Positions 21,964 to 59,869 of a stretch of DNA of 64,000 nucleotides are shown in pieces. Below the pieces are notes generated by a model. The model saw nothing but the letters and a program-made list of their open reading frames with translations. It was not told where the DNA came from and ran no database searches. The stretch spans positions 83,496,503 through 83,560,502 of the forward strand of contig NC_057718.1 in the NCBI RefSeq assembly GCF_004010195.1, written 5' to 3'. A program made the translations under genes and the position numbers. Within the stretch, counting starts at the first letter, position 1; each line of letters opens with the position of its first letter. The stretch is from Chiloscyllium plagiosum (Eukaryota).

Positions 21964-23623
21964 TATGTAATTCCAAACTCAAAATAGCATTCACTATTAA
22001 CTACAAATGAAATCTCAAACCTGCAAAAGCTTCAACAAAACATTTTAAATACAACACAAAGAATTCACCTTAGGAAAGGGAATTGCTAAAATTTCTTCAA
22101 ACACCATTGATCACTGCTCACCGAAAGTCTGACAACTCATAACACAGAAGGAACAGACAAAACTGTAGTGAATTTCTACTGTAGATAGCATATCCAAACG
22201 ACAGACTTTGTGAAGGAACTGACACATACTTGTGAGCAAATGTCACTACATATCTCTATTACATACTGTCACAAATTTTAATAGCTTTCCAATTGTACTT
22301 TATGCTGCTAAATGGACGATTAGACTAACTGGAATCAAGTTCAAGAGAAACTTGAGCTGCTTTTACACCCTTTGTTAAATGCAACTGACAATTCAAAGAC
22401 TGGACAGCCTTTTTCCCCCCGCTCAGGCAGAAACTTAAACTCCAACTTCATAAGTAATCACATCACCCCCAAACAAGAATACAATTTGGCAATGCTAAAA
22501 GCATATATCTCAAATAATCAGGACTATTTAACAAAATACTGAGCAAGAGAAGTTACGAATTTCAATATCAATGTTCAGCAGCATACAAGATGCATGCAAG
22601 TCAACCTTTCATTAGCCACAACAGGCATTTGCATTAAGCCTCAATCTTTCCACCCCATAAATACATGCTTTACTTACCAGTACCTTATAATTGAGTACAA
22701 GGAATAAGCCAGGTGAAATGGGTTGCATTGCCAAGATGCATAGGAGTTTAAGTCAGTCACTCTTCGTATAAAATGCCAATGACATTTCAAATATTCAAAC
22801 ACCCATGTCACTGGTACATGCATATAATGGAAATAAGAGTCAACTCTCCTATTGGAAGGGAAATTTTGGCTTCAAAAGACAACTTGCGTGCCATGATCCA
22901 AGTTACATAGCCATTTGTTTCCATTAAAGAAGATGACAACACAAAACAGATGCAACTTATGTTTGAAATTACCCCTTAAGTGCCTGCTGACTTCTCATTC
23001 AAGATCACATGAATTCTCAAGCAGCAAGTCCTGAATCTTGGCCATCCTGTCACAGAGAATGCCAAATAAGGTCTGGCACCATCATGGACACAAGTGGAAA
23101 AATAAAGTTTCTCTCAAGTCTCCAAACAGATGAAAAGAATGGTTACATGACAAAAATGAAATTGGGACATGGCAAATAAACTTGAAGACTGTCATTGTTC
23201 CATTGCCCAATCTCTTCTTTTCCTATTACCATCTTCATCCTTGCTGTCAGTTAAAATGATTTCTGTCTTCCATCCTAGAAATCAAATCCCAAGCTCAGTC
23301 CTCACTTAAATGATTACCAGATCTTCACCTTTTGTCAATCTCAACAAAAAGCCATCGACCTGAAACATTAAACATTGCTCACCACTGATGGTGTCTGAAT
23401 TTTAAGCATTTTTCAGGGTTTTTTTGTTTTTAATCCAACAATTTTATGCACATAGCTTGTTTTTATTCCCCCTTGAAAAGTGATTTTGTAAAAAATCAAC
23501 TATAACACTCAAACAAATATACAACCACTCAAATTTCATTTGACTGGATTACTTTTTCATATCTTTAGCACAACAAAAAGTTCATCTTTTAGTTTTAAGG
23601 TTGTTAGTGCATTACTGGAAAAA

Positions 23624-23767
23624 TCTTCGAGGAGAAAGTGAGGACTGCAGATGCTGGAGATCAGAGCTGAAAATGTGTTGCTGGAAAAGCGCAGCAGGTC
23701 AGGCAGCATCCAAGGAACAGGAGAATCGACGTTTCGGGCATAAGCCCTTCTTCAGGAAGCCCTTCCT
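23624..23767 (-). mobile_element. PLE-derived repeat family A with intact hammerhead, 14-bp TSD
   Basis: TSD cattactggaaaaa at 23610-23623 and 23768-23781. Confidence 0.9.
23724..23758 (-). ncRNA. Minimal type I hammerhead ribozyme, intact core
   Basis: Minus strand ttc-CTGAAGA-a-gggc-ttat-gccc-GAAA-cg-TC-gatt. Confidence 0.8.
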
Positions 23768-25424
23768 CATTACTGGAAAAAGGTTAGCCCCAGCTCTGAA
23801 AAGGAGTCATAATGGACATTAGCTATGTTTTTCTCTCCACAGACGCTGCCAGATTAGTTACATTTCCCCAGGATTCTTGGTATTTGTTCCAGATTTCCAA
23901 CATCCGCAGGTTAGCTGGTTAACTCAAATGACTAGAGAGCTGACACGTGGTTCAAAATAAAACTAACAGTGTAGATCTGATACCCATTCCAGCTAAGATA
24001 GACATGTAACCTGCCTCCTTGCTCTGACCCCTGAGATAGGTAAGCAATGGAACTAACCACAGATTGCCAAATACTCAGCTCAGGATGAAATATCAAGACA
24101 ACAAGCTAAGGGCCTGCCTTCAGACAGAGGACAACATGAAGAAATTTATTGTCATGGCATCCGGTGTACAATTATCCTTTGCCAAAATAAAATACAAGTA
24201 GAGAAAATTAATGTGATTTAGCAGGAAAATTTCACATACTGAAACTTTTCTTTGGTATGAAATCTGAAAAGCAGGGATAATAACAACTACCTTTCAGGTG
24301 AAAGGATCTTTCCTGTGACAGCCAATTGCTAAAGAAAACAAAGACTCTTTCTTTAAAATTAATGGTCTTAATCAAGGGACGGAATCTCAATAGTGTATCA
24401 GTACATAATTCAACTGTGCAGGATATTAGAACTGAACCGAATCTGATGACTTTCCAAGCTCATGCGATTTACATCTGATGACATTTTGTGGCATCTCCAC
24501 AAGATTGGTTGCGATCATGGATCAACCAGGAAATTTCATGACTTGTCTACTTAAAATAGGAAGATTTTAACCTCCAAATGAAGACAGAAGAAAGTAATCA
24601 CATTTAAAATGACATTGACTAACTTATTAGCAAGCATGAAGCCTCCAGCCAATAATACTTCTTTGCAACACAGCTATATGTTACAATTCGACATCTGGAT
24701 ATTCATTGCAAAGTTTGTCCCTGAGGTACAGCATTTGGATGACTCACATAAAACTAGCCCTTCACAAATAAGTTGGATCAAGATCTTATATTCTCTTTAG
24801 CAAAATAACATGGAATGATAGATACGGCTCAAAACTTGCATCATGGAATAATCTCTGACCCTCAATTAATAGTTAGTCTACATCCCTCTTTTAGAAGGAC
24901 AGGGAAGGTGGTAAAGAAGAAATAACATTAAATGGATCACAGTTTTTCAAACACTGTGAAGTTACCCAGTTACACTCATTCTCCCAGGAATATCAAGAAC
25001 TGCATTTCAATGAGGCGATGTAAAATGGTGCCATCTTTAGATATTGGTCCTTGATTTTGACAAGGAAGTTGAATTATGTTTTAGATGACACATGAAACCC
25101 AAATTCTATTGTTTAGCTATGCAAGTGGACAAAACAAAACAGGTTCTATGGCACTCTTTGCAGATAATCGAGGAATTCTTTCAGCGGCCTGACCAACATT
25201 CAACCCCTACCAATCACCACAGACATAATTTGGCTTTTACCGGTGTCACTGGAAGGTAATTTTTCACTCTTGTTTATTAGTCTATTAATCTCTTTGTAAA
25301 TAATATTCCTCAAAAATGAATAAAGTAATTTCAACAAAATTGGGTACACACATATGGGAAAATGAATTAGTTTTGGAAAAAGCTATAGATCTTGATCCAG
25401 GAAAATTAATTTAAGTATCCATTA

Positions 25425-25655
25425 ACATTGGGAGAAATTGCTAGAAAAGCTCAAAATCTGTGGAGAGAAATCAGAGTTAATGTTTGGGTTGAGTGGCCCT
25501 TCCTCAGAACGTAAGCAACACCAGTTCTGAAGAGGGGTCTCTCGGCCAGAAACATTAATTCCGATTTCTCTCCATGGATGCTGCCAGACCTGCTAAGGTT
25601 TCCCGCAATTTCTGATTTTGTTTCTGATGTAAAGCATCCCCAGTTCTTTCAGTTC
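25425..25655. mobile_element. Palindromic PLE-derived repeat family B
   Basis: Minus gttCTGAGGAagggccactcaaccc.. and plus gttCTGAAGAggggtctctcggccaGAAAcaTTaat, back to back around a ~12-nt spacer. Confidence 0.8.
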
Positions 25656-25829
25656 TCACTAACACTGGGAAATGAAACAGATTGACTTATTTTCAAAAAG
25701 TATAGAATAAAAAATTCTATGCATTGTTCTCTTTAGAAATGTTGTTGCTTATTAACATCGTGGATTGTCTCAGCTGTTGCACTGGAGTTTGTCATTGTCA
25801 AAATATGAACAAAGTTTTCAGAGCAGGCT

Positions 25830-28800
25830 ATTCAATATGGCACTGTGGGCCATCAACAGCAACATAACTCTACTCCAGCACAATCTCCAACCTCATGGCC
25901 TGGCATATCCCCCACTCAACCATCATCATCATCAACCCTGGCTCAATGGAGAATGCAGGAGGGCATGCCAGGAGCAGCATCAGGCATACCTAAAAATGAG
26001 GTGTCAACCTGGTGAAGCTACCAAATAGGACTGCCTGAGTGACAAACAGCATAAACTGCAAATGATAGACAGAGCTAAGCGATCCCAACAACCAACAGAT
26101 CAGATCCAAGCTCTACAATCCTTCCACATCCAATGTGAATGGTGATGGACAATTAAACAACTCACGTGAGGAGGAGGCTCCACAAACATCCCCATCCTCA
26201 ATGACAGAGGAGCCCAGTACATCAGTACAAAAGATAAGCTGATGCATTCGCAACAATCTTCAGTCAGAAGTGCCTGGCTCCTCCAGTGGTCCCCAGCATT
26301 ACAGGTATCAGTCTTCAGTCAATTTGATTCACTCCACATGATATCAAGAAACAGCTAGAGGCACTGAATACTGCAAAGGTAATTAGCCCCAATAACATTC
26401 CATCAATAGCACTGGACATGTGCTCCAGAACTTGCGGCTCCCCTAGCCAAGTTCTTCCAGTACAGTTACAACACTGGCATCTACCTGACAATTGGGGTCA
26501 AGAGTGTGATGCTGGCAAAGCACAGCAGGTCAGGCAACATCTGAGGAGGAGAATTGACATTTCGGGCAAAAGCCCTTCATCAGGAATGGGGGCTGAGAGA
26601 TAAATGGGAAGGGGGTGGGGGAGGTAACTGGGAATGCGATAGGTGGGGAGGTGATGGTGATAGTTCAGAGAGGAGAGTGAAGCGGATAGATAGGAAAGAT
26701 GATGGACAGGTCAAGAAGGCGATGCCGAGTTGGAGGCTTCAGACGGGGGTAAAGTGGGGGGAGGGGAAATGAGGAATCTGGAGAAATCCACATTGATGCC
26801 ATGTGGTTGCAGAGTCACAAGGCGGAATATGAGGTGTTCCTCCAGGCATCCGGTGGTAAGTGTTTGGCAGTGGAGGCGGCCAGAACCTGCATGTCCTTGG
26901 CAGAGTGGGAGGGGAGTTGAAGTGTTCAGCCCCCAGGTGATGGGGCTGGTTGGTGCGGGTGTTCCAGAAATGTTCTCTGGGACGATCCGTAAGTTTGTGC
27001 CCTGTCTCCCCGACATAGAGACCACATTGGATGCAATAGATACATAGGATGACATTGGAGGTGGTACAGGCAAATTTCTGTCAGATGTGGAAGGATCCTT
27101 TGGTGCCTTGGATGGAGTAGAGGGAGGTGGTGTGGGCACAGGTTTTGCGCTTCCAGCTGTGGCAGGGCAAGATACCAGGAATCAGGTGTGGGTGCCACCT
27201 ACAAACACACCCAATCACCAGAGATCAATTTCCCTCCCCACACTTATCAGCGTTCCGGAGAGACCATTCCCTCTGTGACTCCCTCGTCAGATCCACAACC
27301 CCCCCCACCAGACCACACCCAACTCCCGGCACCTGCCCCTGCCACCACAGCAAGTGCAAAACCTGTGCTTACATGTCTCTCCCTTCACCTCCGTCCAAGG
27401 CCCAAAAGGATCCTTCCACATCCGACAGAAATTTACCTGTACCTCCACTAATGTCATCTACTGAATCTGTTGCACCCAATGTGGTCTCCTCAACATCAGG
27501 GAGTCAGACGTCAACTTGCAGATCATTTCAGAGAACATCTCTGGGACACCCGCACCAACAAGCCCCACCACCCCATGGCTGAACACTTCAACTCCCCCTC
27601 CCACTCTGCCAAGGACATGCAGGTCCTTGGCTCCTCCACTGCCAAACTCTTACCACCCAATGCGTGGAGGACAAATGCTTCATATTCCGCCTTGGGACCA
27701 TGCACCTACAGGGGATCAATGTGGATTTCTCCAGTTTCCTCATTGTCCTTCCCCCCACATTATCCCAGTCCCAAACCTGCAATTCTGTACCGCCCTCTTG
27801 ACCTGTCTATCACCTTTCCCATCTATCCACTCCACCATCCTCTCCGACCTATCACCTTCTCCCTTACCTTCATCTACCTATCACATTCTCAGCTACCATC
27901 CCCCCAACCCCATCCTCTTCCCATTTATCTCTCAGCTCCCCCAGCCCACACGCCTCATTCCTGATGAAGAACTTATGCCCAAAACTTCAATTCTCCTGCT
28001 CCTCTGATGCTGCCTGACCTGCTATGCTTTTCCCGCACCACACTCTCGACTCTGATCACCAGCATCTGCAGTCCTCACTTTCTCCCAACATGGAAAATTG
28101 CCCAGATATGTCCGGTACACAAAAAGCAGGACAAATCCAACACAGCCAATTACCACTCTACTCTCCATCATCAGTAAATTAATGCAAGGGGGCATCAACA
28201 GTGCTATCAAGCAGCACCTACTCAGCAAGAACCTGTTCAGTGACGCCCAGTTTGAGTTTCGCCAGGGTCAGTCAGCTTCTGATCGCATTACAGGTTGATT
28301 CAAACATGGACAAAATAGCTGAATTCCTGAGGTGAGGTAAGAAAGACAGCCCTTGACATCAAGGCTGCATTTGACCGAGTATGGCATGAAGGAGCCCTGG
28401 CAAAACTGAAATCAAAGGGTATCAGGGGGGCAAACACTCCGCTGGTTAGAGTCATACCTGGCACAAAAGAAGATGGTTGTGATTGTGGAGGGTCAGTCAT
28501 CTCCGCTGCAGAACACCTCTGCATGAGTCCTTCAGGGTAGTGCCCTGGGCCAACAATCTTCAGCTGCTTCATCAATGACCTTCCCTCTGTCATAACGTCA
28601 GAAGTGGGGATGTTCATCCATGATTGTACGGTGTTTAGCACCATACGTGATTCCTCAGATACTGAAGCAATCCGTGCTCAAATGCAACAAGATCTGGACA
28701 ATATCCAGGCTTGGGCTGACAGGTGGCAAGTAACATTCGCACTACACAGACAATGACCATCACCAATAAGAGACATTCTACTCACCGCCCCTTGACATTC

Positions 28801-29505: not shown

Positions 29506-30092
29506 TTTTGTCTGAAAGCTCCTCAGTGAGGAGGGAACAATTTCGTTATTCAACTCTATGGTCACAGAGCATCAACCAGCAGGGAAAAATGTATTACTGC
29601 ACTAAAACTGAGCGAATACATGGTACGAAAGGTACACATTTCTGAGAGTGTCCTTTTATCTTGTGATAACGTACTGTGAGCAAACTGCATTCCATACTAC
29701 TATTTAAAAGACAACCGTGTCTAAACCTAATTGAATGGTTATGAGCTGCTTTGAAATTTCCTAAGAAAGGAATTAAAACTTCCCATTAAAGAACTGTAAT
29801 TGCATTAACGGTCTTGAAACATGCAAAAAACATTTAGCCTGTTTTTCTTTGCAAGAACCAACTTTAGAATTATTCAATGTAACAGCATTTTAAACTAACT
29901 GAAGAAATAAATAGTTTTAGGTACAGCCTTGCTGTAAATCTACAATAGTGAGTAGAGTGGGTTTTTTCTTGATTATATGTTTTTATTGGAATCTGTCTCT
30001 TGAATAAATTTTAAAAATATAAGCCATAAGTATTAAGTTAGCCTGGTGCAGAAAGGAGCAAAATGGCTTTAAGAAGAGTGATATGCTCTTCT

Positions 30093-30610: not shown

Positions 30611-30794
30611 TTCTCATTAGGAGAAATAGGCGGGTAGTACAGGAGTATTCTGTGGCTATCCTCATTTCAAACAAGCATGCCATTTTGGAACATGTAGGGG
30701 GTGACGCACACTCAGGGGAATAAAGTACAAACACCTAAGATTCAGGTATCAAGACTGGCTTTAATGTAACAAGGAATACACTGGGTTCCAAGTT

Positions 30795-36310: not shown

Positions 36311-36908
36311 TACAAAAGTAATTCCTGCTGGCTCCTCCACAAGTGTGTGGATTAGAGCCGTAAAGGTTTTGTTTTTTGCTCTTATCCTTTCAATCAAGAG
36401 GCTATTAGTTAAAACTGACAGTCTCAAGGCACTAATTTAGAGCCAAAAAGCCCAGTTCAAGTCACACCAACTTCAGAGCAATATCATTTACAAACAGGCT
36501 AACAGTCAAAAAATATATCTAAGGACCCATTTGGAACAGTGGTAATGTCCCTAACTCTGGATCAAGAGGCCAGGTTTCAAATTCCACTGCCTCAGAGGTA
36601 TACAATAACATCTCTGATCAGGTTGATGAGAAAATAAAACTAACAGTCCCCTGTTTAATGACGTATGTGCACAGTCTGTTCTCCTCAAAAAAAAAGCCTA
36701 AACCAAAGAAAGACACATGTTAAACGTATTGATGGGGGGATCCAAGATGACGGCGACCCGGCAAGTCTGAGTCTACAGTGCTCCTCCCAAGATTTGAGCA
36801 AAGTGGGTCACCCAACCCCACCACACTCATCAAATCATTTAAAATAGTTTTTACTTAATGTACTTAGTTGTTTAGTATTGAATTTAAACAATTTAATCTC
36901 CAGTAAAA

Positions 36909-37752
36909 ATGACTAAAGGGAAGGGAGCCCGCAGCTCTTAGCAAGCGGGAACCCCTCGCCAACCCTCTCCAGCTGCAGCCGCCCCGGGGGACTTACCTAC
37001 GATGGCGAGCCTCGTGGAAATAATCTTCAAACTCGTTGCGAAGATCAACGTTTTTCATTGAAGAATCCCGAAGCCGATGGGACTCACTCTCGGCCGCGCT
37101 GCAAAAGCACAACTGAGACATCAAGGAAATCGAGCGCCAAGTCAGAGGGGCTGAGCTAAAGGCCGCGACCTCCGAAACTACAGCACAATCGGCCGTGGAT
37201 TGGGTCGGGACTCTCGAGCAGCGAGTCCGGACCTTAGAGAATCACATTGACGACCTCGAGAATCGAGGTTGTCGAGAAAATATTTGTTTGCTGGGCCTTC
37301 CCGAACGGGAAGAGGAAGGCCAGCTTACGGTGTTCCTTGAACAGTGGCTTCCACAGCTTTTAAATCTGGAGGTTGGATCAGCCCAGGTAAGGGTGGAATG
37401 GGCCTACCGGGTTGCAATACGCGAGCCCGGCTCAAACCAGCGTCACCGCCCGGTCCGGTTCCGGCTGCAGAGCTACAAGGAGAGGCAGATACTCTTAGAA
37501 GCCTCCAGAAATCTTTGAAAAGATCCCCAAGCCATGATCTATAAAGGATCCAAGATCATGTTATTCCAGGACTTTTCCCCAGCTCTGGTCCGAAAGAGGA
37601 AGACGTTTGATGAGGCGAAGAAGTGTTTAAGGGACTTAAAAATTCAGTACTCCTTGTGCTACCCAGCAACGCTACGCTTTAACCATGAAGGCTCCGTGTA
37701 TAACTTCGGATCGCCAGAAAAGGCCAAGGAATTTTTGGACTCTCTTAGATAA
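36909..37752 (+). pseudogene. L1 ORF1p (coiled coil-RRM-CTD), with stops and a frameshift
   Basis: MTKGKG…LENHIDDLENRGCRENICLLGLPE…RPV…IMLFQDFS…YPATLRF…F.SPE.A..FL. Confidence 0.9.
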
Positions 37753-38239
37753 ATTGTAAGAGATAATTGATGTTGGTTTGCTTTCCCCCCACTCCGGTTT
37801 ACATCTCCCCTCCCTTTTTTTTAACCTGTTTAATATTATCTTGGGGGGTTGGGAGAGGGATTTATTTATTTGTTCTCTACTGAACGATTTTCTCCCCCCT
37901 CCATTTTTGTTTTATTCTATATAAGGCCGGGGGGGTCTAGTTAATGTTGGTAGGGGGAGGTGGTTACCTTATCTTATTTTACCTCTGTCTCTTGGAGCGG
38001 GGTTGTTTTCCCTTGTTATTTTGTATTATTATATTTAATTATTACTTGTTGAGGTTGTAATTTTATAGTTAGATATGTTTATACATGGTATTAACATTAC
38101 CAAGTAAAACCAGGTATTTCGGGAGGGGGGGGGTTAGGGTGCTCACTGTTAACTCCAGCTCTGTAGTGTATTTGAAATTTTCTTCATCCTGTTGAGGAGC
38201 GCCTGGGTCAAGGGTGGGACACTGGTTGGGAGAGGATGT

Positions 38240-39431
38240 AACTCTGAAGATGGATGAGGGAGATCCAGTGGATGTAGTGTACCTGGACTTTCAGAAAGCT
38301 TTTGATAAACTCCCATATAGGTTAGTGAGCAAAATTAGGGCGCATGGTACTGGGGGCAAAGTACTAACTTGGATTGAAAGTTGGTTGGCTGACAGGAAAC
38401 AAAGTAGTGATAAAGGGCTCCATTTCGGAATGGCAAGTGGGGTACTGCAGGGATCGGTGCTGGGACCACAGCTTTTTACAATATATATTAATGATATAGA
38501 AGATGATATTAGTAATAACACTAGCAAATTTGCTGATGATACTAAGCTAGGTGGCAGGGTGAAATGTAAGGAGGATGTTAGGAGATTACAGGGTGACCTG
38601 GACAGTTTAGGTGAGTGGACAGATGCATGGCAGATGCAGTTTAATGTGGATAAATGTATGGTTATCCACTTTGGTGGCAAGAACAGGAAGGCAGATTACT
38701 ACCTCAATGGAATCAATTTAGGTAAAGGGGCAGTACAGAGAGATCTGGGTATTCTTGTATACCAGTCAATGAAGGTAAGCATGCAGGTACAGCAGGTAGT
38801 AAAGAAGGCTAATAGCATGCTGGCCTTCATAACAAGAGGGATTGAGTATAGAAGCAAAGAGGTTTTTCTGCAGCTGTACAGGACCCTGGTGAGACCACAC
38901 CTGGAGTATTGTGTGTAGTTCTGGTCTCCAAATTTGAGAAAAAACATTCTGGATATTGAGGGAGTGCAGCGTAGGTTCACAAGGTCAATTCCTGGAATTG
39001 CGGGACTACCTTACGCTGAAAGACTGGAGCGACTGGGCTTGTATACCCTGGAGTTTAGAAGACTGAGAGGGGATCTGATTGAGACATAAGATTATTAAAG
39101 GATTGGACACTCTGGAGGCAGGAAACATGTTTCCACTGATGGGTGAGTGCCGAACCAGAGGAGACAGCTTAAAAATACGGGGAAGACCATTTAGGACAGA
39201 GATGAGGAGTGGTGGCGGTGTGGAATGCTCTTCCCCAGAGGGCAGTGGAGGTCCAATCTCTGGATTCATTTAAGAAAGAGTTGGATAGAGCTCTCAAGGA
39301 TAGTGGAATCAAGGGTTATGGAGATAAGGCAGGAACAGTATACTGATTAAGGATGATCAGCCATGATCATATTGAATGGTGGTGCAGGCTCGAAAGGCAG
39401 AATGGCCTACTCCTGCACCTATTGTCTATTG
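38240..39431 (+). mobile_element. 5'-truncated CR1 nested in L1 inter-ORF spacer
   Basis: VDVVYLDFQKAFDK, QGSVLGPQLFTIYIND, FADDTKL; tail cctactcctgcacctattgtctattg. Confidence 0.92.
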
Positions 39432-39646
39432 ATACGATGGACTTTTGGAAAGGAAGTGATACCCCCGGGAACAAGGGGGAAAATCTCCATTTAAATAAGT
39501 TTTTTTTTATTTAGAAATAGTTTTTTATTATAATGTTGTGAGTGTATTAGAGAGCCTTTATTTTTGTGAATTTTATATGCTCTATGCTCGGGATGTTCTG
39601 GATAGGGTTTCCCCTCCCGAGGGGTCTCGGATTCACCCAGACGATC

Positions 39647-42600
39647 ATGGTTGATCAGTCGGTTAAGTGGTGCACCTGGAATGTCAAGGGGAGTAATTCA
39701 CCAGTCAAAAGGAAGAAAATATTATCAAACCTCAAGAAAGAAAGGGTTGATATAGCTCTCCTACCAGAGACACACTTATTGGATAAAGAACACTTGAAAT
39801 TACGACAGGGTGGATTTGATCAGGCCTTTTTTTCTTCTTTTAGCTCAAAAGGCAGGCGAGTTGTTATTCTTATTCCTAAGAATTTCCCTTTCAAAATCCT
39901 AAATCAGATAAAAGACGAATCTGGATGATATATTCTGATTAAAGCCCTTATAAATGGAGAGGAATATGGGATTTTAAATTTGTACCCTCCCCCCCCCCTT
40001 CTATCAAGAATTTAAAACGTTTTTAGAAATCAATTTAGGTACAGCTAGCAACCCATCAATGATGTGGGAGACCATCAAAGCTTACGCGCGAGGTTTGATC
40101 ATCTCATACTCAGCAACCCAGAAAAAATTAAAGGGATAACAACTGGGTCTGCTTGAAGCCCGCTTAAAAGCAGCTGAAACAGCATACGCTGACAGACCTA
40201 TTATCAAATTGCAAAGGATTATGGCCCTTAGGACAGCTCTAAACACCACGCTTACCCAAACGGCTAAGAGGGAAATATTATTTGCAAAACAAAGGTTATA
40301 TGAATTTGGCGATAAACCTGGTAGATACTTAGCATTTCTTGAAAAGAAAAAGAAGGCCCCTCAAACTATCACATCTATCAAGGAAAGTATGGGTATTTTG
40401 ACTCATGATCATAAAAGGATTAACGCAATCTTTAGAAAATTTTATTCTTATTTATATAAATCGCAGGATTGTGAAGACAGGATGAGGAAGATGCAATCAT
40501 TTTTTTAAAAACTTGACCTTTCTGGACCTAACGCCGGAACAGGTATCGGTCTTGAATGTTCCCCTAACAATCCAAGAAATACTTGACGCAATCAGGCAAC
40601 TTTAGAGTGGTAAGACACCTGGCCCAGATGGCTTTCAAGCTGAATTCAAAAAAGAATTTACAGGAATATTGGCTGGTCCACTTATGGACATGTATAACTA
40701 CTCATACAGTCAGGATTGTCTCCCGCCTTCGCTGAAAGAGGCAAATACCTCTCTCATCCTTAAAAAAGGAAAGGACCCAGAAGATTGCGTGTCATACAGA
40801 CCAATATCCTTGCTAAATGTAGATTTTAAAATCCTCTCTAAAACGTTAGCATTGAGGCTAGAAAGGGTATCGCCACATATCTTAAAGGAGGATCAGACGG
40901 GGTTTATTAAGGGCCGTAGATCATCCAATAATGTTAGAAGGGTTATGAATGTGATTCAAGCCTGCCATCAGGGAAAGATACCAGGAGTAGTAATCTCATT
41001 AGACGCGGAAAAGGCATTCGACTGGGTTGAATGATCATATTTGTTTTACACGTTGGAAAGGTGTCTACCAAATGGGTCTCAACATTGTATAGTGACCCCA
41101 AAGCAGTTGTGATTACCAATGGATTAGACTCGGATACCTTCAGTGTGGATAGGGGCTGCCGTCAGGGATGTCCTCTCTCGCCATTGCTATTTACACTAAC
41201 AATTGAGCCACTAGCAGAAGCTATACGGGCTGACCCTAATATAACGGCCCCAAGGATTGGTACAGGTAAACATAAAATTACCCTTTATGCAGATGATGTT
41301 CTTCTATTTCTCAGTAATCCTTTGATGTCCATGCCTTGCTTAATCCAAGTTATTAATACATTTAGTGCATTTTCAGACTACAAAATTAATTTCTCAAGAT
41401 CGGAGGCTATGCCAATGGGTGGCCTTGCTAGTATATCCCACTTACTGATCGAATCCACTTTCCCTTTCGGTGGTCCCTGGAGGGTTTTTTATATTTAGGC
41501 ATTTTTATTACCCCAGTATTTGGTCAGTTATACAAGGCTAACTTTGTGCATTTACTGGAAAGGATAAGGCAGGACCTCCAGCGATGGGGAGACCTTCCAA
41601 TTTCCTGACTGGGTAGAATAGCACTAATTAAAATGAATGTCCTGCCCCGTCTCCTATATCCTATGAGAACGCTTCCGGTGATACTGCTGAGGCTGGCTCT
41701 ACGTAAATTAAATGGCTGGTTGGGTTTCTTTATCTGGAATCATAGATGGCCCCTCATTAAGCTGAAGAAGCTACAGCTTCCACAGGCAAGGGGAGGATTG
41801 GATTTCCAAGATTTTAGGAAATATCAGTTAAGTTCCCTATTAGGTTACATAGCTGATTGGGTCTTGTCTGATCCACAATCAATCTGGCTGGTCATCGAGG
41901 CTTCTCAAGTAAAATGCCCACTTATTAACCTTTTATTTTCAGACAAGAGGAAAATCATTATGGATCACTTTAAAAACCCTATAATACTAAACACAATTAA
42001 AGCTTGGAATATAATGCAGCAAAATGAGGGCAACTCACATAAAACATCCCCCTATGCTCCGATAGTGGGAGCATGGGGAGTTCAACCGGGGTTTACAGAT
42101 GCCACTTTCAAACTCTGGAGATCCAGGGGTATCTCTTGTTTAGGGGATCTATTTAAAGAAGGGGTCCTGATGTCTTTTGAACAGCTGCGTCAGAAATTCG
42201 GATTACCTAATGGAGACCTCTTTCGATACTTCCAAATTCGAGATTACATACAGAAGAAGACTATGTTATTAGACAGTCTTTATATATCAGATAGAGAATG
42301 TAGAGTGCTATGGCCAATGGGGGTATCTTCCGTCAGTACTATTTACCATTTACTACATGATGAAGTATCGGGAGATATGGACAATCTGCTTAAAACATGG
42401 GATCAGGATTTGGAACTAGAAATCTCTATAGAAACATAGAATGACATTTGGGAAAACGCCAGAAGAATCACCATCTGCAACAGAACTCAGGCTATTCAGC
42501 TGAAGATACTTCATAGGGCCCATATAGCACCGGATCGATTGGCAAAATTTAAGGCAGGAGCATCTTCAATGTGTCCCAAATGTAAAATAGAGGTGGGCAC

Positions 42601-42987
42601 TCTTGTACATTGCCTATGGACCTGTCATAAGATCCGTAGATACTGGACTAAAGTAGCAAGACCCTGACAGAAATCTTCGGAACGGAAATTAGAGTGGACC
42701 CTGTATCTCTCCTTTTGGGCTTTTCAAACTTACCCTCCCTGGATATGCATGGAAGAGATTATTTTCTATTCTCTCTTTCTGTGCAAGGAAAAATATTTTG
42801 GTAAACTGGGTGGCTGAGGGCCCCCCTGGACTTTCAGATTGGCACAAATTAATTATGGAATGTATTCCCCTTGACTTCCTTACAAATATGGTGCACCAAA
42901 AGACCGAATTATTCCATAAAATATGGCAGCCCTTCTTGAATTATATAAATAGTTATTTCGGCCATCCTAACAAGGGCTTTTATTTAA
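39647..42987 (+). pseudogene. L1 ORF2p (APE endonuclease-RT-CCHC), disrupted
   Basis: TWNVKG, ETHL, YRPISLLNVDFKIL, LDAEKAFD, GCRQGCPLSPLLF, LYADD, CPKC..GTLVHCLWTC. Confidence 0.93.
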
Positions 42988-43835
42988 TTGAGACAGCAAA
43001 CCTGGCTGGTCCGGGGCCCCTTGGGAAGGAATCCCGCACGAATATGGGTTTTGTTACATTTGATGTTAATACATTCCAAGCATGCATCTCACTACCCAAT
43101 TTCTGTGTTATCTGTCGTTTTTTTGCTCTTATTTGAATAATGTAAGAGACTTAATTATACACTCTGGTCAGTTGTAGGTAAGATTAGTAGTTTGTCGAGT
43201 TTTGTTTTTTTTCTTGGTATTTTTCTTTTGTTAAATTTTGGTTATTATTTATTTAAGATTTAATTGTATATCAATATTTATACTTGGATTTTTTTTATTT
43301 TGTAAACTTGTAAAAATGTTAAATTTTCAATAAAAATATCTATTAAAAAAACGTATTGAAAATATACTAAATAAAGTCCTATCAGTCACAACTCCTCTGT
43401 ACCAGCTCCAACTCTTCAAAAACACATTTCAATCTAATCCAACAAGCTACTGTTTTTCTCATTATCCTGCTAATTAGCTCTGAAGAACACATCCAATTCC
43501 CTTTTTTAATGTATCTACAAAATGAGACTCCAGGTACTGTATCCTTTCAGCTACTGTCCTCCAAGTCTTGTAATTCTCAAATAACCTTTAGTTTTCTACC
43601 AATTTTAAATCTCTGTTGTTTGATTAACAACTCTTCAGGTGGAGATCTGTTAAACCTCTCGAGTCCATCAGGAAGTAGTCAGCACATAATGTCCTCAAGA
43701 CCCAGTAGGAAAAGGAGAGTGTGGATCTTGTCCCTGAGCAGATCAAGTCAAATGAAGTATCCTTACGCTATCATGCCATCTTTGTTTTGAGACCAGAGCC
43801 ACAACATTTCTACATCAAATGATTAAAAATTGGTC

Positions 43836-44863
43836 TGATGTAAACTGTGAGATTTATATCTATAAAATTTAATATTTGTTGCGAGTATGGGTTTCAGGTC
43901 TTGGAATTAGTAACTGGTAGGTTTTCTGCTTGTCTTCTGCCTACTACCTTGTAAGCATTTCTGTAGCCATTATGATTTTTAAAAAGTTTCTGAGGACTAG
44001 TTTTAGAATGAATGGATTTTGTGCACCATTTATTGTATAATGTTCTGCCACACAGCATGATAAGCTAGAATACAATAGCTGTTTAGAAAAGTGCTATCAA
44101 GAAAGGTAGGGTTTGCAGTGAACTAAATTACTTTAGAGTCAAGAGGTAGTGTTAGTCCCAGACCTGATGAGCAGGATGTACCTGAAGGAGATTAAACCTG
44201 AGTCAATTTGAGTGGTGTGTGACAGCTTCTTCCAGGACTATCTGCAATCCAGTCTAAAAGTCTCAAATGACCTAAACCTCAAGGTGTTAAGTTACTGGGA
44301 CATTGGTATGAGTATTAGCATGGGTGGTATTTTGGGTACTGTGTTTTAGGTACCTTACCAATGAAGTTTTAATTCTTTTTAATTTATTAAAGGAGCATTT
44401 TGGAATCATACTTTCAGTGCGTTTAAAAAATGTTATCAATAGGTGGTTTGCTATATACTATCTTATAACAGAAAAGCAAAACATGCTTGTAGAAACTCAG
44501 CATCTGTAGATAGAAAGAGAGCTAGTGTTTTGAATCTGATGAAGAGTCACTGGACACAAAACATTAACTCAATGTTTCTCACCACAGATGCTGGCAGAGC
44601 CAAGTTTCTCCAGTACTTTGTTTTTGTTTGTTTCAGATCTCCAACATTCATTGTTCTTTGAGTTATTTGATTCTATCTTATCTTTATTTATTTTGCAATA
44701 AACTTTTGTTTCATCATCAAAGCAAAACATGCAGCATTGTGTGCTATGCTTCAGTGAGAAAATATTTTGTTAAAACCAAATCATGCAAGAATATGATCCA
44801 TCAGACCAGATTCATGTCAGGGATCTTACTTGTCTAGTAATAACATCAGATAGGATAATAACA
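43836..44863 (+). mobile_element. Solo LTR (~1 kb) with 6-bp TSD, containing a family B PLE repeat (~44470-44660)
   Basis: ttggtc|TGATG…TAACA|ttggtc; AATAAA at 44697. Confidence 0.7.
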
Positions 44864-51230: not shown

Positions 51231-51336
51231 AAAACTATTGAGAGGTCTGTGGTTCATTTCTCAGACCAACGTCCTACCCATTCAGTACAATTTGGAGGTG
51301 CCAGTGTTGGATTGGGATGGACAAAGTTAAAAATCA

Positions 51337-51660
51337 GGTAGGCGAAAGTGAGGACTGCAGATGCTAGAGATCAGTCAAGATTAGAGTGGTGCTGGAAAAG
51401 CACAACAGGTCAGGCAGCATCCGAGGAACAGGAAAATCGACGTTTCAGGCAAAAGCCCTTCATCAGCGAAAAGGCGGGAAGCCTGCAGGGTGGAGAGATA
51501 AATGAGAGGGGGGTGGGGCTGGGGAGAAGGTAGCTAAGAGTACAACAGGTGGATGGAGGTGGGGGTGAAGGTGATTCTGATGAAGGGCTTTTGCCCAAAA
51601 CGTCAATCTTCCTGCTCCTTGGATACTGCCTGATCTGCTGTGCTTTTCCAGCATCACTCT
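51337..51660. mobile_element. Palindromic family A PLE repeat, 14-bp TSD
   Basis: TSD aaagttaaaaatca at 51323-51336 and 51661-51674; hammerheads on both arms. Confidence 0.9.
51435..51468 (-). ncRNA. Minimal hammerhead motif, intact core
   Basis: cg-CTGATGA-a-gggc-tttt-gcct-GAAA-cg-TC-gatt; stem I poorly paired. Confidence 0.65.
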
Positions 51661-53099
51661 AAAGTTAAAAATCATACATCAGGCTATAGTCCAACAGGTT
51701 TTATTTGGAAGCGCTGCTCCTTCATCAGGTGGTTGTGAAGGTTAAGATCACGCTCACAGAATTTATAGCCAAAGGAGTCCAGTGTCATGGTGATGTGATA
51801 TAGCAAACAACCTTAAATAAACACTTTCATCTTTTATAATGGGATATGCTGGTTTCTGTTCTTTGATATGTAAATCCATTCAGAGTCAATTTGCCTGGTT
51901 TGAAATCTAAAAAAAGCCTAGCAGTGAATGGTCAATCATTAACGGATGTACTCCTCATGACAATGCCTCTACCAGAGACATTCTACCAACCAATCAGTAC
52001 TTTCCTTACATTATAAATGTGGGCTTTCTCCTTTACCGCTGAGAATTGCCCTGTTTAGGGCAAGACAAAAATGTATCTTTTTGCAGCAATACTTTCTGGT
52101 TAACCACAAATGGAGAGTCCTCTCTTGGGAATTTTTCTCTCTTGTGGGGGATGGATCTATTTTACGTAATCATACATTTCCCTTTAAATTTATGACTCTG
52201 CAATTCTATTAATCTATCCCTTAACCTAAATTTGCCAGTCTATTTCAGTTAGCTCTGTTTTCATACTCTCATTATTCCCTTTATTTAAGTTTAAAATACT
52301 AGCTTTGGGTCCACCCTTCTGTCCCTTAGACTGAACGTTAAATTCAATTGTGATCACTGCAACCTAGGAATACGTTCACCATGATGTCACTAATTAATTC
52401 TATTTGTTGCACAATTCCAAGTCTAGTACAGCCTGCTCTCTGGTTGACTCCAGAATGTGCTGTTTTGAGAAACTATGGCAAAAATATTTAGGAAAAGCCT
52501 CTGTGATTTCTCCAATCGTAAGTGGTTTAAAATCTTCCATGGTTACGATCTTTCTGACAAGTTGCCACCATTTCTTCTTTTATATTCCATTCAGGAGGCC
52601 TATGTACCACTCCCACAAGTGACTTCTCGCCTTTATTGCTAAACTCTACCCAAATCACATTTATATTATGGTTTCCTGAACTTAGTTAATCAGTTTACTT
52701 TAACTAATAGAGCCCCCCCCTTCACTTTTCCTAGCTTCTGGTCCTTCATAAGTGCCCCATATTTTTCAATATTCATGCTCTAATCGAGATCATTCTGCAG
52801 CCATAGTAATCAGAAAGCTATCAGATTTCATTTACTGATTTCTACTGTAGAAGCACTTATTAATGGCCTTCTGAAAATCCAGATAAATTGCATCCAGTCT
52901 GCCTGTCAATCTAGATGTTCCCTTTCAAAGTCCATGTTGGCTATTCAATAGCATTTTTTAAAAATTTCTAGATATTCTACTACTTTCGCTTTTCATAGTG
53001 AAAAATTCATAATTTTTCCCATTACCATTGCCAAGCTGGCTAACAAAGAAAGAATGTGCAGATTTCGATGGGGGAGAGGGAGGAGAAGACAAAAGAAGC

Positions 53100-53500
53100 A
53101 TATGTTTTCAGGCAGGAAAAGATCCAAGAATAGGACTGAGGGAGCTGAAGAGGCTGCAGCCAATAATAGGTCAAATGGTGGTGTTGCACTGAAGACCAGA
53201 ATTAGAAGAGTAGCATATTTGGGCGATGATACAATAGTCTTCAGTGCTGGGAGCAAAGCCATGAAGAATGTTTAGAAGACAATCCAGAATGTGTTGAGAG
53301 AAAAGTAGTGTGGAATTGAGCTGACTGGTTTCTGCCAAACAAGATTTGGACAACCATGGATCCAGGAGGTATACACTCCTCAAAAAGGAGTGGAAGGTTG
53401 AAACTGAAGTAACATTTGAAAAAAATGTGAGTAACGGCAAGTTTTTGAGGAGTGGGGTAACTGTTGTGGTTTTGATCAGGAGAGGGATGTGGCCCAAGCT
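53100..53500 (-). mobile_element. L2-like LINE RT relic
   Basis: IPLLIKTTTVTPLLK, LDP, PVSSIP.. motifs in broken frames. Confidence 0.45.
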
Positions 53501-55004
53501 AATAGAAACAAGTCACAAATGGGTATCAAATAGCCAACAGAGAATCAAGGGAGAAGACAGGTCAAAGGTTGGAGAGAGCAGGGAAAGAAGAGATGAGTGA
53601 AAACCAACAAAAACAAAAAAAAGAGACCTTGACTTAGGACTAAGCAGATGATTGTGGAATAAAAATAAAATGCTAGAGAAACTCAGCAGGTTTAGCAGCA
53701 TCTGTGAAGAAACAAACAAAGTTAATATTTCAAATTCAACATGATATCTTCAAAACTGTGTATCAGGTTTGCCACTTCAATATTGCACAGGGAAGTCAAC
53801 ATTGTCTTTAACAGCAGTTCTTGAACAAACAAATGAATTTCACAAATACATACATTTAAAACATCTAAGTTTTCTCACTGTATAATCAATAGCATATCAT
53901 AGAATCGTACAGAAGAGGCCCTTTGGCCCATCAAATTTGCACCAAAAATCAGAAAACTAACTATAATTGGAAAAGAAACATAACCCTTTCTCTCAGTAAT
54001 TTGTCAATTCAAGCAAGTCCAGTCGCAATTCATGTTAATTCTTTATTACACTTAAGTATTGTTGTAACCAACAATAATCACAATAATATGTTAATTAACT
54101 TATACAGATAATGTATTAGAGATTCATTCGTGAAACTAAAAGCCAAGTATCACCAGAATTAAAATGAATTAGGTTTCTCCACTTGCACTGATAAAAATAT
54201 ATAAGGACTTTGAGGAAGCTATTTTTAAAATCAGATATCACAGACCACAATGGTATTATGTTCAATTTATCGAAGACAAAAAGATGTTCCCAAGCATTGC
54301 TCAAAAAATGAGGCAGCCATGAGGAAGTCATGCTTACTACCAGTTAACGAATGCAGAAGCAGATCTATCCAGATGAAAAATGTGTTTTTAATTGGTTCCT
54401 AAATTTTTTTTAAAGCTCTACACACAAATTCCACAGTTACATGAATAAATCTCTACATGTGAAATTTCTGTACAAAAAATGTCACGAAGAAACATAGTGT
54501 GATTTTTAATTTGCAGTTTTCTTTACCAAATTTATCTACAATAACATTGGCGGTATTTAAGAGAACATTTTATAAGACATTTTAAATACAGGATATTTAT
54601 TTAGAATTCCTCTCCAATGGAATTATCAAGCTCAATTTAGACACAAAGATCTGTCATATAAAATGACAAGGAATGCCATTATGCAGTAACTGGTTTCAAA
54701 TGGAATAACAAAGGTTTTTGAAATTATGCACAACATAAAAGGCTCAGAATGAGGAGGATGAGGCAGAGGGAACTGTACTAATTACAAGAAATTTCAGTCC
54801 AGTAATTGCTGTTTTAGTTGCAGACTCATTCAACTGCAGTGTGTTGGACAGTAGATGCATGTCCAAAATGTGAGGAGTATACTGGTTAAAATGTTACTCA
54901 GCCCTTAACGAATCTAGATATGGTTGATGCAATTTGAGAGGTTAGTCAGTTTCAGATTTGGGGTTAGTCAGTGACATTTTATAAATTCCTACTTTGGAAA
55001 TAAA

Positions 55005-55400
55005 ACCAGTCTAACTGCAGGTTGGGATACAAACTGACTCTAACCTCACACCTTCAATGCATTGAACACTTTTTAAAATATACTGATAGAACCTTAAGTT
55101 ATGTTGGAGCAGTGATTGAAAGAAACTCTGGGATTTACATATCAATGAATCAAATCCTGCATCCCTATTCTAAGTGGTTAAAGTTTTAACAGCCATCTAG
55201 GTTTGTCTCACACATCGTATCAGTTGTATGACATTTTGATCTTTTACTTATAAATTTAATGTCCGATGTATACTACCCCACCAGCTATCTGACAATGGAG
55301 CAGTGCTCCAAAAGCTTGAACGTTCAAATAAACCTGTTTGACTATAACCTGATGTCATGTGATTTTCAACTTCTTCAATTCAGTCCAGCTCTCACATCTG
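55005..55400 (+). mobile_element. PLE-derived repeat family D with degenerate hammerhead
   Basis: CTGACAA-tggagc-agt-gctcca-AAA-gc-TT..aaataaacctgtttgactataacc. Confidence 0.65.
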
Positions 55401-55409
55401 TGGCTATAT

Positions 55410-56600
55410 GCATGCATTGACCAGTGGAAATTTTTTCTGCAAGTTCAATCTCAACATTTTCGTCATCACTTGTTTCTTCATTTCTTACTTTTACCCTTCA
55501 ATACCACTTTAACAATCACTTCAGCAGGTGATTCACAGCTGGAGCATCTTTGTCAACATCCTTCCAGTCCTGCAAATCTTTTCAATTTTTTAACTACACT
55601 GTAGGGCTGGATATACTGTTGGTATGCTTCCATCAACTTGAGGATAAACATATATTTGTTTGAGACAGTCTGAATCCAGCAAAGTCAGTCTCTTGAGCTA
55701 CACCAGGACTATCCTCAAACATTAAAACAAGCTACAGAGTGCACCAGCTATTGTTCAGAGTGGACAGAGGTACATTTGACCAGGTACAAGGTACTATCCA
55801 AATCATATCCTGAAGGTTAAGTTCTTTCCAAAATATTACCACAGATCTCCCAGTATTAAATTCACAAAAGCGACTGGTGCATAAATTTGGACCTGTACTT
55901 AAGTTACTTAAGGGATCAGGAGATACCATGATCATAAAGCTAAATCAGAGGCATACAGTTAGAGGATGAATACATTCCTGCCACATTGCTCTTTAAAGAA
56001 CAGTTCAACTTTAGGACAGGCCAAAGAATCATCAAGAATCAAATTTTTCAAAGTCAGATGCAGCCCTACACTTATTTCATGGATTCTAGCCTCCACTACA
56101 AAATATTTCTCGAACCACTTGGAAATAACTGTGGTTATGCAATCTTTCTTGTCACAGTACATAAGCAGGAATATTTTTGCCCTTTTGAATACTTTTGGGT
56201 GACACATTTGCTAATGATGCTCAGGAGCTTGCAGTTCTGCATAACCGTAGCATTACAACAAGCTACAAAATAAAGTCATCCTGTCCTTTGGTCCCTCACT
56301 CCAGTAGGCAATGCGATGGCCTTTTGCTAAAATTTTGCAAGGCATACAAAGCCAACAAGAATCAGTTTCATTGGCACTGTATACCTGCTCTGGGAATACC
56401 TATTCAGTGCCAATTAACTTACAAATTCAACAAAATTGGCAGCTACTTAAGCATCAACACTTTTTTTCCAGCAGACGCACACCTAACATCATGCCCATTC
56501 TTAAACTTCTGCAGCCATCCTTGTAACTATTCACACATGCTGCAGGTTAAGTTCTTGGTAGAATATTTTTGCTTGGGTACTTATCATCTTACTAGAAATC
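55410..56600 (-). pseudogene. Tigger/pogo transposase relic
   Basis: Minus frames QAKIFYQELN..GWLQKFKNGH (HTH), PEQVYSANET (cf. YN.DET), KDRMTL..CCNA, HPKVFK, SKWFEKYFVVEA, ILDD..CP. Confidence 0.8.
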
Positions 56601-56821
56601 TTCATTCCAACAAAGCATAAATTAATGCAAATGTGCACTGTCCAAATCAATATTTCATTCTTTTAATGTCTTACAAACTATAATAACTAATCTAGTTAAA
56701 AAAACTCAAAGCAGCAAAAGAATAAGACCAAGTCATATACTGTGGACAACCCAGTAGTGTGAGCAAGCAAAGCCTACACTAACTTGTTTTTTCTTTCAAC
56801 AATTCAACCTTTTATTCTACG

Positions 56822-57235
56822 AACGTATGAAATAAGAGCAGAAATAAACCAGTCAGCCCTTCGAGGATGCTCTGCCACTCAATAAGATCATAAACTGATC
56901 TATTTGAGTTTCAAATTCCACATTTCATTTACCTTTAATAATCCAAATCCCACTGCTTAACAAAGAACTTATGCACCTCAATATCAATTTCAATGATTCC
57001 AAGCTACTACTTTTCGAAGCAACTTCCAAAGTCACACAACTGTCAGAAAAACAATTTCGTCTTCATCTTGAAAACATGACCTAAAGCTTTAGAACAGTAC
57101 ACCCTACTTTTCAGCTGATGACCAGAGTATACATTGTTTCCGACATCCAATTTGTCAAGGCCATTCAACATATCTTAAGCACTTCAAATCACGCCAATCC
57201 TTGCTCCAAACTCCAGTGGAAACAAGCCCAGTCTG
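56822..57235 (-). mobile_element. Old CR1 3' end
   Basis: gaacgtatgaaataagagcagaaataaaccagtcagccc..ctctgccactcaataagatcat, like 16352-16430. Confidence 0.6.
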
Positions 57236-57591
57236 TGTTTTTGGTAACATGGGTGTTTAAGAAGTTAAAAATACATATAAAACAAGTTGCCCTCACATAA
57301 ATAAAATATATTATTTTGACTATGTTCTATAATCTAGTTTGCATCACTTATAAAATATGTGTAAGTATAGAATGTCTAAAGTAAAAAAATCTCCTTTGCC
57401 TTGATGAAAATCGTCCATGAAGTATGTAATTCATTATGGGAGGGGGAGAAGAGAGTAGGATGAAAGGTGTACAACACAAATTCTCATTTATACAGCATCT
57501 TTAATCAGTATAAATGCCTATTGGTGATCAAAAGGAGAAAGACAGATATTAAGCAATAGGAGAGGCACCCAGAAAAATATTCTAAAAGAGA

Positions 57592-59236
57592 TCACTTGGA
57601 GTGAATAAAATTGGCTGAAGACTGGTATCTGTGATGCTGGGTACTATGGAGGAGGCTGAGGTGGATCAGCCACTTGGCACTCCTGGCTGAAGATAGCTGC
57701 AAATGCTTCAACCTTTTCTTTTGCACTGATGTGCTGGCCTCTTCCATCATCGAGGATGGGGCTATTTGTACAGCCTCCTCCTCCAATGAGTTGTTTAATT
57801 GTTCACCACCATTCATAACTGGATATGACAGGACTGCAGAGCTCAGATCTGATTGGTTGGTTGTGATCAATCAGCTCCATCACTTGTTGCTTATACTGTT
57901 TAGCATGCAAGTAGTTCTGTTTGGTAGCTTCACCAGGTCGACAACTAAATTTCAAGTACATCTGGTGCTACTCCTGGCATGCTCTTCTGCACTCTCCATT
58001 GAACCAAGATTGAACTCTTGACTTAATGGTAATGATTAAGCGGGGAATATGCTGGGCCACGAGGTTGCAGGTTGTGCTGAAGTACAATTCAGCTGCTGTT
58101 GATGGTCCACAACACATCATGGATGCCAAGTCAAGTTGCCAGATCTGTTCAAAGTCTGTACCATGTAGACAATGATAATACCACACAACACAATGGAGGA
58201 TATTTTCATTGTGAAGGCAGGACTTCGTCTCCATAAGGACTGTGCAGTGGTCACTCTTATCAACACTGTAACGGACATTTGTATCTGCAGCCAGCATAGC
58301 GGTAAGGAGAACATCAAGTCTGTTTTTCCCTCTTATTGGTTCTCTCATCGCCTGCTGCAGACCCAGGCTAGAAGCTACGTCCTTTAAAATCCAACCAGCT
58401 TGATCGGTAGTACTGCTGCTAAGCCACTATTGGTGGTGACAATTGAAATCCATCGCCCAGGGTTTGTGTCCTTGCCATCCTCAGTGCTTCCTCCAAGTAT
58501 ACATGGAGGAGTACTAATTCATTAGCCAAGGGAGGACAGTACACGGTAATCAACAGGATTACCTTGTCTGTGTTTAACCTGATGCTATGAGACTTCATTG
58601 TGTCCAGAGTCAATGTTGAGGACTCCCAGGGCGACTCCCTACCAACTGTATACCACTGTGCCTCCACCTCTGCCGTGTCTGTCCTGTCAGTGGGACAAGA
58701 CATATCCAGGAATGGTGATGGCAGTGTCTGGGATATTGTAAGGTACGATTCAATGAGTATGACTATATCAGGCAGTTGCTTGACTAGCTTGTGAGATAGC
58801 TCTCCCAATTAAAGCACGAGCCCCAAGACATTAGTAAGGAAAGTACTGTTTCTGCCGTGGTCTTTTCTGGCACCTCGGTCATTGCCAGGTGATCCATCCG
58901 GTTTTATTTTATTGAGACTTTGTAGCAACTGGTACAACAGAATGGTATGCTCAGCCATTTCAGAGGGCAATTCAGAGTCAAGCACATTGCTGAGAGTGTG
59001 GAGTCAAATGTAGGCCAGATCAAGTGAGGATGGCAGATTTCCTTCCCTGAAGGACACTAGTGAACCAGACAATTGTTTCATTATCATCTGCAGATAGTTA
59101 ATTCAAGATTTTTTTTTAAAATTGAATTAAAATTCCCCAATCTACCACTGCGGGATTTGAACCTGGGTCCCCAGAACATTAGCTGAGTTTCTGGATTAAT
59201 AGTCTAGTCATAATACCACTAGGCCATCACCTCCCC
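57592..59236 (-). mobile_element. 5' part of the 25830-type LINE with a tRNA-like head
   Basis: GELSHKLVKQLPDIVILIESYL, TVYCPP, RGKNRLDVLLT, KSDH, WFNGECRRACQE; head ggggaggtgaTGGCCTAGTGG…GGTTCAAATCC. Confidence 0.85.
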
Positions 59237-59428
59237 TAAATGTTTTTATTTCAGTTAAGTAAAATATAATAGATAATTCTAAACTCATTAGTCTGGTTTT
59301 GTACTAGGTTTGTCAGTGAGATTCATGTGAAAATCACACAAAGAGAGGAATTTTGTGGAAGTTACATTACAATAGTATGAAGTGGCTTCAACAACATGAA
59401 GCTGAAAGCCAGCGTTGCCTACAGAACT

Positions 59429-59557
59429 CTCATTTATCTCTATACCCTTCAGCCTCTCTGCCTGTATTCCTGATGAAGGGCTTTTGCCTGAAACGTCGAT
59501 TTTACTGCTCCTCGGATGCTGCCTGAACTGCTGTGCTTTTCCAGCACCACTCTAATC
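59429..59557 (+). mobile_element. Family A PLE repeat, 14-bp TSD
   Basis: TSD ttgcctacagaact at 59415-59428 and 59558-59571. Confidence 0.9.
59466..59500 (+). ncRNA. Minimal type I hammerhead ribozyme, intact core
   Basis: attc-CTGATGA-a-gggc-tttt-gcct-GAAA-cg-TC-gat. Confidence 0.8.
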
Positions 59558-59869
59558 TTGCCTACAGAACTAGGCACCTCTCCCAAATCAAAATAATGAG
59601 TACAGCAGGTTTCCACCATTTGTGACTTCATGAAAAAGCTCTTGAAATTAAACTCGTCTTTCTGTGCAAAGGCAAGTAACAAGAAAATTACACCATTTAA
59701 TTTATTAAGAATCTAACTGCAACACAATGATTGTAGTAAATGCTGGTGTGTTTTTAAAACAGTCATTTGCAGCAATTTAAACTGAGGGGGTACGTTCAAA
59801 AGTTAGGTTTTTTCTGTATTTTACTTCTCGTTACCAAATATGGAGTGCTACTTGGGAGCCAGACTTTTA

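Follow-up and report, generated by a model that had tools for sequence, protein, structure and literature searches.

Sharply peaked target-site duplications of Neptune-type Penelope-like retroelements in a genomic window of Chiloscyllium plagiosum

In target-primed retroelements the cutting of the second target strand is an open step, and it is least known for Penelope-like elements (PLEs), the sister group of telomerase. Duplications of about 10–15 bp have been quoted for Penelope and Xena. PLE duplications have been described as variable in length (PMC9977147) and as hard to discern (PMC8557442), and the passages cited here give neither a sharp peak at 13–14 bp nor a link between length and junction type; the openly searchable literature, which leaves aside subscription papers, Repbase and supplements, yielded no distribution of PLE duplication lengths. 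The Poseidon protein of the green anole, PAc, nicks and extends both strands of AT-rich targets, initiates at two sites, by which the tail is defined, and is a predicted dimer; the main text on it has no word of duplication, overhang or stagger (PMC11167929). We analysed 64,000 nucleotides of Chiloscyllium plagiosum DNA (GCF_004010195.1, NC_057718.1, positions 83,496,503 to 83,560,502; "the window"), for which it had been predicted that three insertions of hammerhead-bearing PLEs have duplications of exactly 14 bp and that a GIY-YIG endonuclease may make a fixed 14-nt staggered cut. The repeats are true target-site duplications of Neptune-type PLEs, and their length is sharply peaked and lineage dependent, not invariant. 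The kind of element is known; its insertion signature is probably undescribed so far and can be tested.

The three pairs (sites 1–3, Table 1) lie at the predicted positions, agree in 14 of 14 bases and are mismatched at the base adjoining either side, while none of 4,000 random pairs of 40-base windows at similar spacing (pad 20) had 12 or more bases in common. The 14-mer of site 2 is present as a single copy in the host repeat family (family B; consensus before 61915 and sister copies), and the repeat there therefore arose at insertion. An element-blind scan of the window for all exact direct repeats at distances of 40–1,700 bases yielded six 14-mers where shuffled sequence has 0.35, four 13-mers where it has 1.9, and no repeats of 15–17 bases; Penelope-like ends are flanked by four of the six 14-mers. 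Using profiles of four end families, A–D, a grouping that goes back partly to the earlier prediction and partly to us, we delimited 21 units and accepted flanking repeats with a score of at least 10; among 420 cross pairs, four scored this high, and two of the four were long matches (27 and 63 bases). Seven units carry such a repeat. Its length is 14 bp in five of them, once with a mismatch, 11 bp in one and 10 bp in one, and never more than 14 bp. The share at 14 bp has a 95% interval of 0.35–0.91, and in the other 14 units, several of them old or cut at one end, the length is not measurable. Three of the five 14-bp repeats belong to family A and two to family C; the latter (44473/44719 and 561/708) had been overlooked in the earlier census, which was right about its three sites, about the lack of a repeat at 924, 13564 and 26492, and about 10 bp at 63161/63272. 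The 11-bp repeat at 10827 is ambiguous, as rightward extension gives 14 bp with one mismatch. Repeats of score 8 (23781, 25423 and 61866) were left out because about 12% of cross pairs get this score, and the possible decayed repeat at 25420..25670, with a chance-level score, was not counted.

For comparison, an endonuclease alignment gave 92 loci outside the window, the best 80 of 538 confirmed metagenome-contig loci and all 12 of 12 genome-contig loci, which we take for DNA of animal hosts that the assemblies include. In 60 of these loci, 109 edge pairs gave 17 matches of any length with a score of at least 10, against about 1.5 expected by chance. Six were dropped: self-matches in L065 and L087 (twice), a 22-mer of L091 inside a 920-bp internal duplication, a 14-mer of L024 that is part of another repeat, and a second pairing of L054 (10 bp). 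Matches of score 9, which include L056 (12 bp, one mismatch), do not rise above chance and were left out. Eight of the 11 repeats kept are 13 bp and none is longer; L051, whose ends are unlike PLE 3' ends, is doubtful and was kept as nonmodal. The 11 span at least four sequence groups. The nine repeat-bearing loci compared with the window's endonuclease fragment are 38–51% identical to it, the cysteine-pair motif occurs in 10 of 10 checked loci (partial or broken in two), and 6 of 10 have the same hammerhead core as the window ends. The units enclosed by the eight 13-mers and by the 12-mer of L018 are all two-ended, and only one end of each bears a tail. Lengths of 14 and 13 bp split wholly by source (5/0 in the window and 0/8 outside; Fisher P = 0.0008). 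The hammerhead core of L070 (1109–1131) hardly differs from the core in the youngest window subfamily; the duplication of this locus is nonetheless 13 bp. A 920-base segment splits the two-ended unit of L091 (4066–4988) and has a second copy at 6576–7474. Ten contigs of one bacterial metagenome-assembled genome carry Neptune-type retroelements (L082–L088 and L090–L092), which suggests animal host DNA in the bin, and L081 and L089 do likewise in two others. Exact family A patterns were absent from the viral, metagenome and genome contigs, and none of five endonuclease-profile candidates in viral contigs was confirmed.

Both spikes could have been drawn from a broad, L1-like distribution centred near 13–15 bp, through small-sample luck and the detection floor. 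L1 duplications are reported as 7–18 bp, mostly 13–15 (PMC6007223), or as 14–16 (PMC2912911), and the first three cases were weak on their own (probability of three equal lengths in four, 0.02–0.08). Detection favours longer repeats, and still neither set has any above its mode. With a standard deviation (SD) of 3 or 2, five equal lengths in seven have a probability of 0.004 or 0.011 in the window (0.001 for a uniform distribution over 10–20 bp, 0.12 at SD 1), and seven in nine outside it a probability of 0.0002 or 0.0007. We regard the broad distribution as quite unlikely. The opposite extreme, a strictly invariant 14 bp in all Neptune elements, would agree with the four exact 14-mers in the window, and a two-base gap lets the 10-bp repeat at 63161 align over 14 bp, as a mismatch does the 11-bp repeat. 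The gapped fit is, however, one among several post hoc fits, and related elements contradict the idea, with 13 bp the prevailing length and never 14 bp after the L024 14-mer is dropped; we give it next to no credence. Of the fixed 14-nt cut in the original prediction the sharp peak thus stands, whereas lengths of 10 and 11 bp show that it is not invariant, and 14 does not hold as a clade-wide number.

Judged by their sequence, the window elements are endonuclease-bearing (EN+) PLEs with Neptune-type 3' ends, and the predicted identity as hammerhead PLEs agrees with a minimal motif and a GIY-YIG remnant. The coding remnants of an old two-ended family A insert (26497..28085), at about 27300–27750 on the plus strand and 26739–27080 on the minus strand, carry a C-x4-C-xx-C linker and the C..C and H..H residues of a CCHH motif, which are invariant in the endonuclease alignment. 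A 62-residue window fragment has 323 phmmer relatives (E ≤ 0.001). Five of these were scanned against Pfam: the three long ones have a C-terminal GIY-YIG domain, two of them with RVT_1, and the two short ones have no match. Among the fragment's atlas neighbours is a cluster in which 15% of the members are GIY-YIG; Pfam finds GIY-YIG in none of five window fragments, and the window contains no reverse transcriptase (RT) part. A pattern scan detected a hammerhead core with a four-pair stem II in five family A copies, while Rfam detected no hammerhead in the window ends and the folds were not stabler than those of shuffles. A minimal hammerhead has been reported for such elements (PMC4209133). 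A CX2-5CxxC linker marks Neptune or Nematis (PMC8557442), and sampled vertebrates are reported to have Neptune and Poseidon only (bioRxiv 10.64898/2026.07.22.740005); the assignment to Neptune is based on the two together. With Neptune-clade EN+ PLEs the elements share the C-terminal GIY-YIG, the linker, the terminal-repeat hammerhead, 5' truncation, an inverted arm, a one-ended tail and short duplications (PMC8557442, PMC3846280, PMC4209133). They differ in that their targets are not microsatellites and in that the passages cited report single values (8, 9, 10 bp or none) or indiscernible duplications. Truncation, inverted arm and a one-ended tail of 30–50 nt are seen in the inserts at 51337–51660 and 26497–28085 and in nine outside two-ended units. 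An integrase or transposase with fixed termini and an invariant duplication does not fit the inserts, whose truncation varies (101–324 bp) and whose duplications have lengths of 10–14 bp.

For the family A copy at 63190, which is 97.6% identical to the copy of site 1, the length of 10 bp had been given correctly, and a templated filler had been missed: 18 bases at the 5' junction, which mark a repaired end, are an exact copy of a donor about 800 bases downstream. A reading of this filler (63171) as short antisense pieces of the element was dropped once the exact donor turned up. Both 10-bp cases, this one and L080, are one-ended with filler (two of two, a tiny sample); the filler of L080 (4971–4990) repeats its own target. 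The 10 bp may be a genuine product length or may represent 14 bp followed by a two-base slip, and both fit the data. At 63272, the alignment of an organism B contig starts with exactly the right repeat's first base, and because the contig's 257 further letters stay outside the element, the insert is probably missing from organism B and hence young. At site 3 a contig of organism B begins 24 bases within the insert, which is therefore probably common to both.

Sequence preference around the inferred nicks bears on which enzyme makes them. We compared 24 positions at both nicks of the 13 modal-length sites and found a pyrimidine at +3 in 23 of 26 cases (top strand, 11 of 13; bottom strand, 12 of 13; window, 8 of 10; outside loci, 15 of 16; P = 9e-5, uncorrected for the 24 positions). 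Adenine makes up 12 of the 104 bases at +1 to +4 after both nicks, against a background of 30%. Position +1 is biased through the delimitation of the repeats, and +3 is free of that bias. Because both nicks have the same flank bias, a single enzyme cutting twice fits the data. The alternative is that only the first nick is the element's own and that chromatin, a host nuclease or a repair factor sets the second 13–14 nt away, which would explain why two families have 14 bp in this genome and four groups have 13 bp outside it; the full split by source is expected under host and lineage control alike. The shared flank bias speaks against a host-set offset, as do the anole protein, which alone cuts both strands in vitro (PMC11167929), and the LINE (long interspersed nuclear element) peak, which stays with the element across hosts (PMC4245944). 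We consider it unlikely. As far as sequence goes, the second nick of the predicted GIY-YIG cut could be assigned to the element or to the host.

Bases common to target and element RNA might also lengthen apparent repeats, with a true offset that is shorter and variable. Element-like bases do occur within repeats (three at 59558, two at 51661 and six at L009), and the tails at 23624 and 51337 share a seven-base match in register. A variable offset combined with a variable overlap would not converge on a single length, however, and in L076 and L091 a 13-bp repeat occurs although the left junction lacks any overlap. At seven of the nine outside junctions that pass an agreement filter, the overlap with the element's next bases is 0–2, and overlap therefore does not create the length. 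This makes the overlap explanation highly improbable.

We think it probable that the element itself sets a near-fixed offset, with trimming at repaired ends. The repeats with their lengths, the identity and architecture of the elements, the filler and the flank bias are observed, whereas the nicks, the enzyme behind the second of them, the overhang polarity and a geometry with two endonucleases are deduced. A protein with RT and GIY-YIG domains would nick both strands of AT-rich DNA at an offset of 14 nt in the two families here and 13 nt in related families elsewhere, leaving 3' overhangs, the polarity needed if the duplication is to arise by priming from 3'-OH ends. Each target 3'-OH would be able to prime reverse transcription. 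Priming at both ends, from start sites with and without a tail, would produce a two-ended insert with a full-length duplication, and as both overhangs would then be primed, the duplication length would equal the offset directly. Where one end is joined by host repair with filler, the overhang would be trimmed to about 10 bp. In B-DNA, a cross-minor-groove stagger of about 3 and one turn of 10.5 add up to about 13.5, so that offsets of 13 and 14 both place the cuts on one face of the helix. A more specific proposal, which we offer only tentatively and hold to be somewhat short of an even bet, is that two endonucleases act as a ruler: they would nick one turn apart on the same face with a symmetric flank preference, both ends would be primed concertedly, and the offset would be a lineage signature approaching the sharpness of integrases, unlike the spread of L1.

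Several points weigh against an element-set offset. The lengths come from only 7 of 21 window units and from 11 repeats among 60 outside loci, and since repeats below 10 bp look like chance, the samples are small and censored below that length. Nonmodal lengths occur both in the window (10 and 11) and outside it (10, 12 and 12), and rotifer Penelope copies are reported with 8, 9 or 10 bp or none (PMC3846280). Under a fixed offset, chance matches should extend about 45% of repeats, yet none of 13 exceeds the mode, and the flank bias accounts only partly for the missing longer repeats. Site 1 keeps a full 14 bp despite nine additional bases at the 5' junction of its insert. Host and element vary together in the contrast of 14 with 13. 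The evidence on empty sites is indirect, as read mapping over a stretch that took in sites 2 and 3 was swamped by paralogues; read-derived contigs at site 2 stop at 51325–51335, and a paralogue tried as the empty site of the insert at 26497 stops short of the junction.

Among other retroelements, a close parallel to an element-set offset is the specific-cleavage model of LINEs, with an element-specific peak, 3'-overhang processing to shorter duplications, flank-copied filler and inverted inserts that retain long duplications (PMC4245944, PMC2912911, PMC6007223). The elements here share the sharp peak (five of seven at 14 bp and eight of 11 at 13 bp), the filler and the inverted inserts; shortening at filler-repaired junctions may be common to both as well, with filler in the two 10-bp cases but also the full 14 bp of site 1 beside its extra bases. 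The elements here differ in endonuclease family and retroelement class, and both of their outer ends are element 3' ends; the peak also looks narrower, a single value against the 13–15 or 10–20 reported for L1. PAc resembles the inferred scheme in nicking and extending both strands, in its two tail-defining start sites, its AT-rich targets and its predicted dimer. It belongs to the Penelope/Poseidon clade, whereas the elements here are of Neptune type, and it is reported to prime without homology, whereas some junctions here have two to seven bases in common with the element. By tying a single duplication length to two-ended inserts, the data give this in vitro system a number to test and a dimer structure a number to match. 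Duplication length also offers a simple rule for locating where inserts start and stop in genomes crowded with copies; one subfamily here has roughly 100,000–150,000, a rough figure from read depth and an assumed genome size.

Table 1. Inserts, duplications and related features in the window, and duplications kept at outside loci
Feature	Position or locus	Strand	Details
Family C end 575–707	561..721	+	14-bp repeats with one mismatch (561–574, 708–721)
Family C end 10838–10961	10827..10972	+	exact 11-bp repeat
Site 1, left duplication	23610..23623	+	14 bp, exact
Site 1, family A PLE 3' end with tail	23624..23767	-	144 bp; minimal hammerhead motif 23729–23755
Site 1, right duplication	23768..23781	+	14 bp, exact
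Inverted family C insert 25434–25656	25420..25670		possible decayed 14-bp repeat, two mismatches
Old two-ended family A insert	26497..28085		broken GIY-YIG coding on both arms
Inverted family C insert 44487–44718	44473..44732		exact 14-bp repeats (44473–44486, 44719–44732)
Site 2, left duplication	51323..51336	+	14 bp; within family B PLE end
Site 2, two-ended family A insert	51337..51660		324 bp; hammerhead motif 51440–51466
Site 2, right duplication	51661..51674	+	14 bp, exact
Site 3, left duplication	59415..59428	+	14 bp, exact
Site 3, family A end, 5'-truncated, without tail	59429..59557	+	129 bp; hammerhead motif 59470–59496
Site 3, right duplication	59558..59571	+	14 bp; first three bases also match sister-copy continuation at 51337
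Young family A end 63190–63271	63161..63281	+	10-bp repeat (63161–63170, 63272–63281); filler 63171–63189
Filler donor	63975..63992	+	18 nt, exact copy of 63172–63189
Outside duplications, 13 bp exact	L009, L020, L070, L076, L086, L091		
Outside duplications, 13 bp with one mismatch	L054, L071		
Outside duplications, 12 bp	L018, L051		
Outside duplication, 10 bp	L080		one-ended, with filler

The insert of site 2 has an antisense left arm with a tail and a sense right arm without one. It lies within a Penelope end of family B, where the tail region begins (51281–51740), and its target is similar to the family A tail junction, with seven bases in register with 23624. Directly after the right repeat of site 1 a family C end begins (23768–23915), with a flanking match of 8 bp, which is at chance level. 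The old insert at 26497..28085 has no measurable duplication; a possible decayed one lies at 26480–26500 and 28085–28095, where the difference between two seven-base flanks is what decay of a CpG on one strand in one flank and on the other strand in the other would leave. At its 5' end the family A copy at 13562 adjoins a 105-base piece of a LINE-like repeat (13690–13802), also present at 12846 and 31271. An exact 13-bp direct repeat, 171 bases apart, lies at 15604–15787, and the sequence it encloses is without a match to the four PLE end profiles. On the plus strand, 36738–43136 holds a decayed element with ORF1-like, endonuclease-like and RT-like open reading frames, which from its motifs we take to be L1-like.

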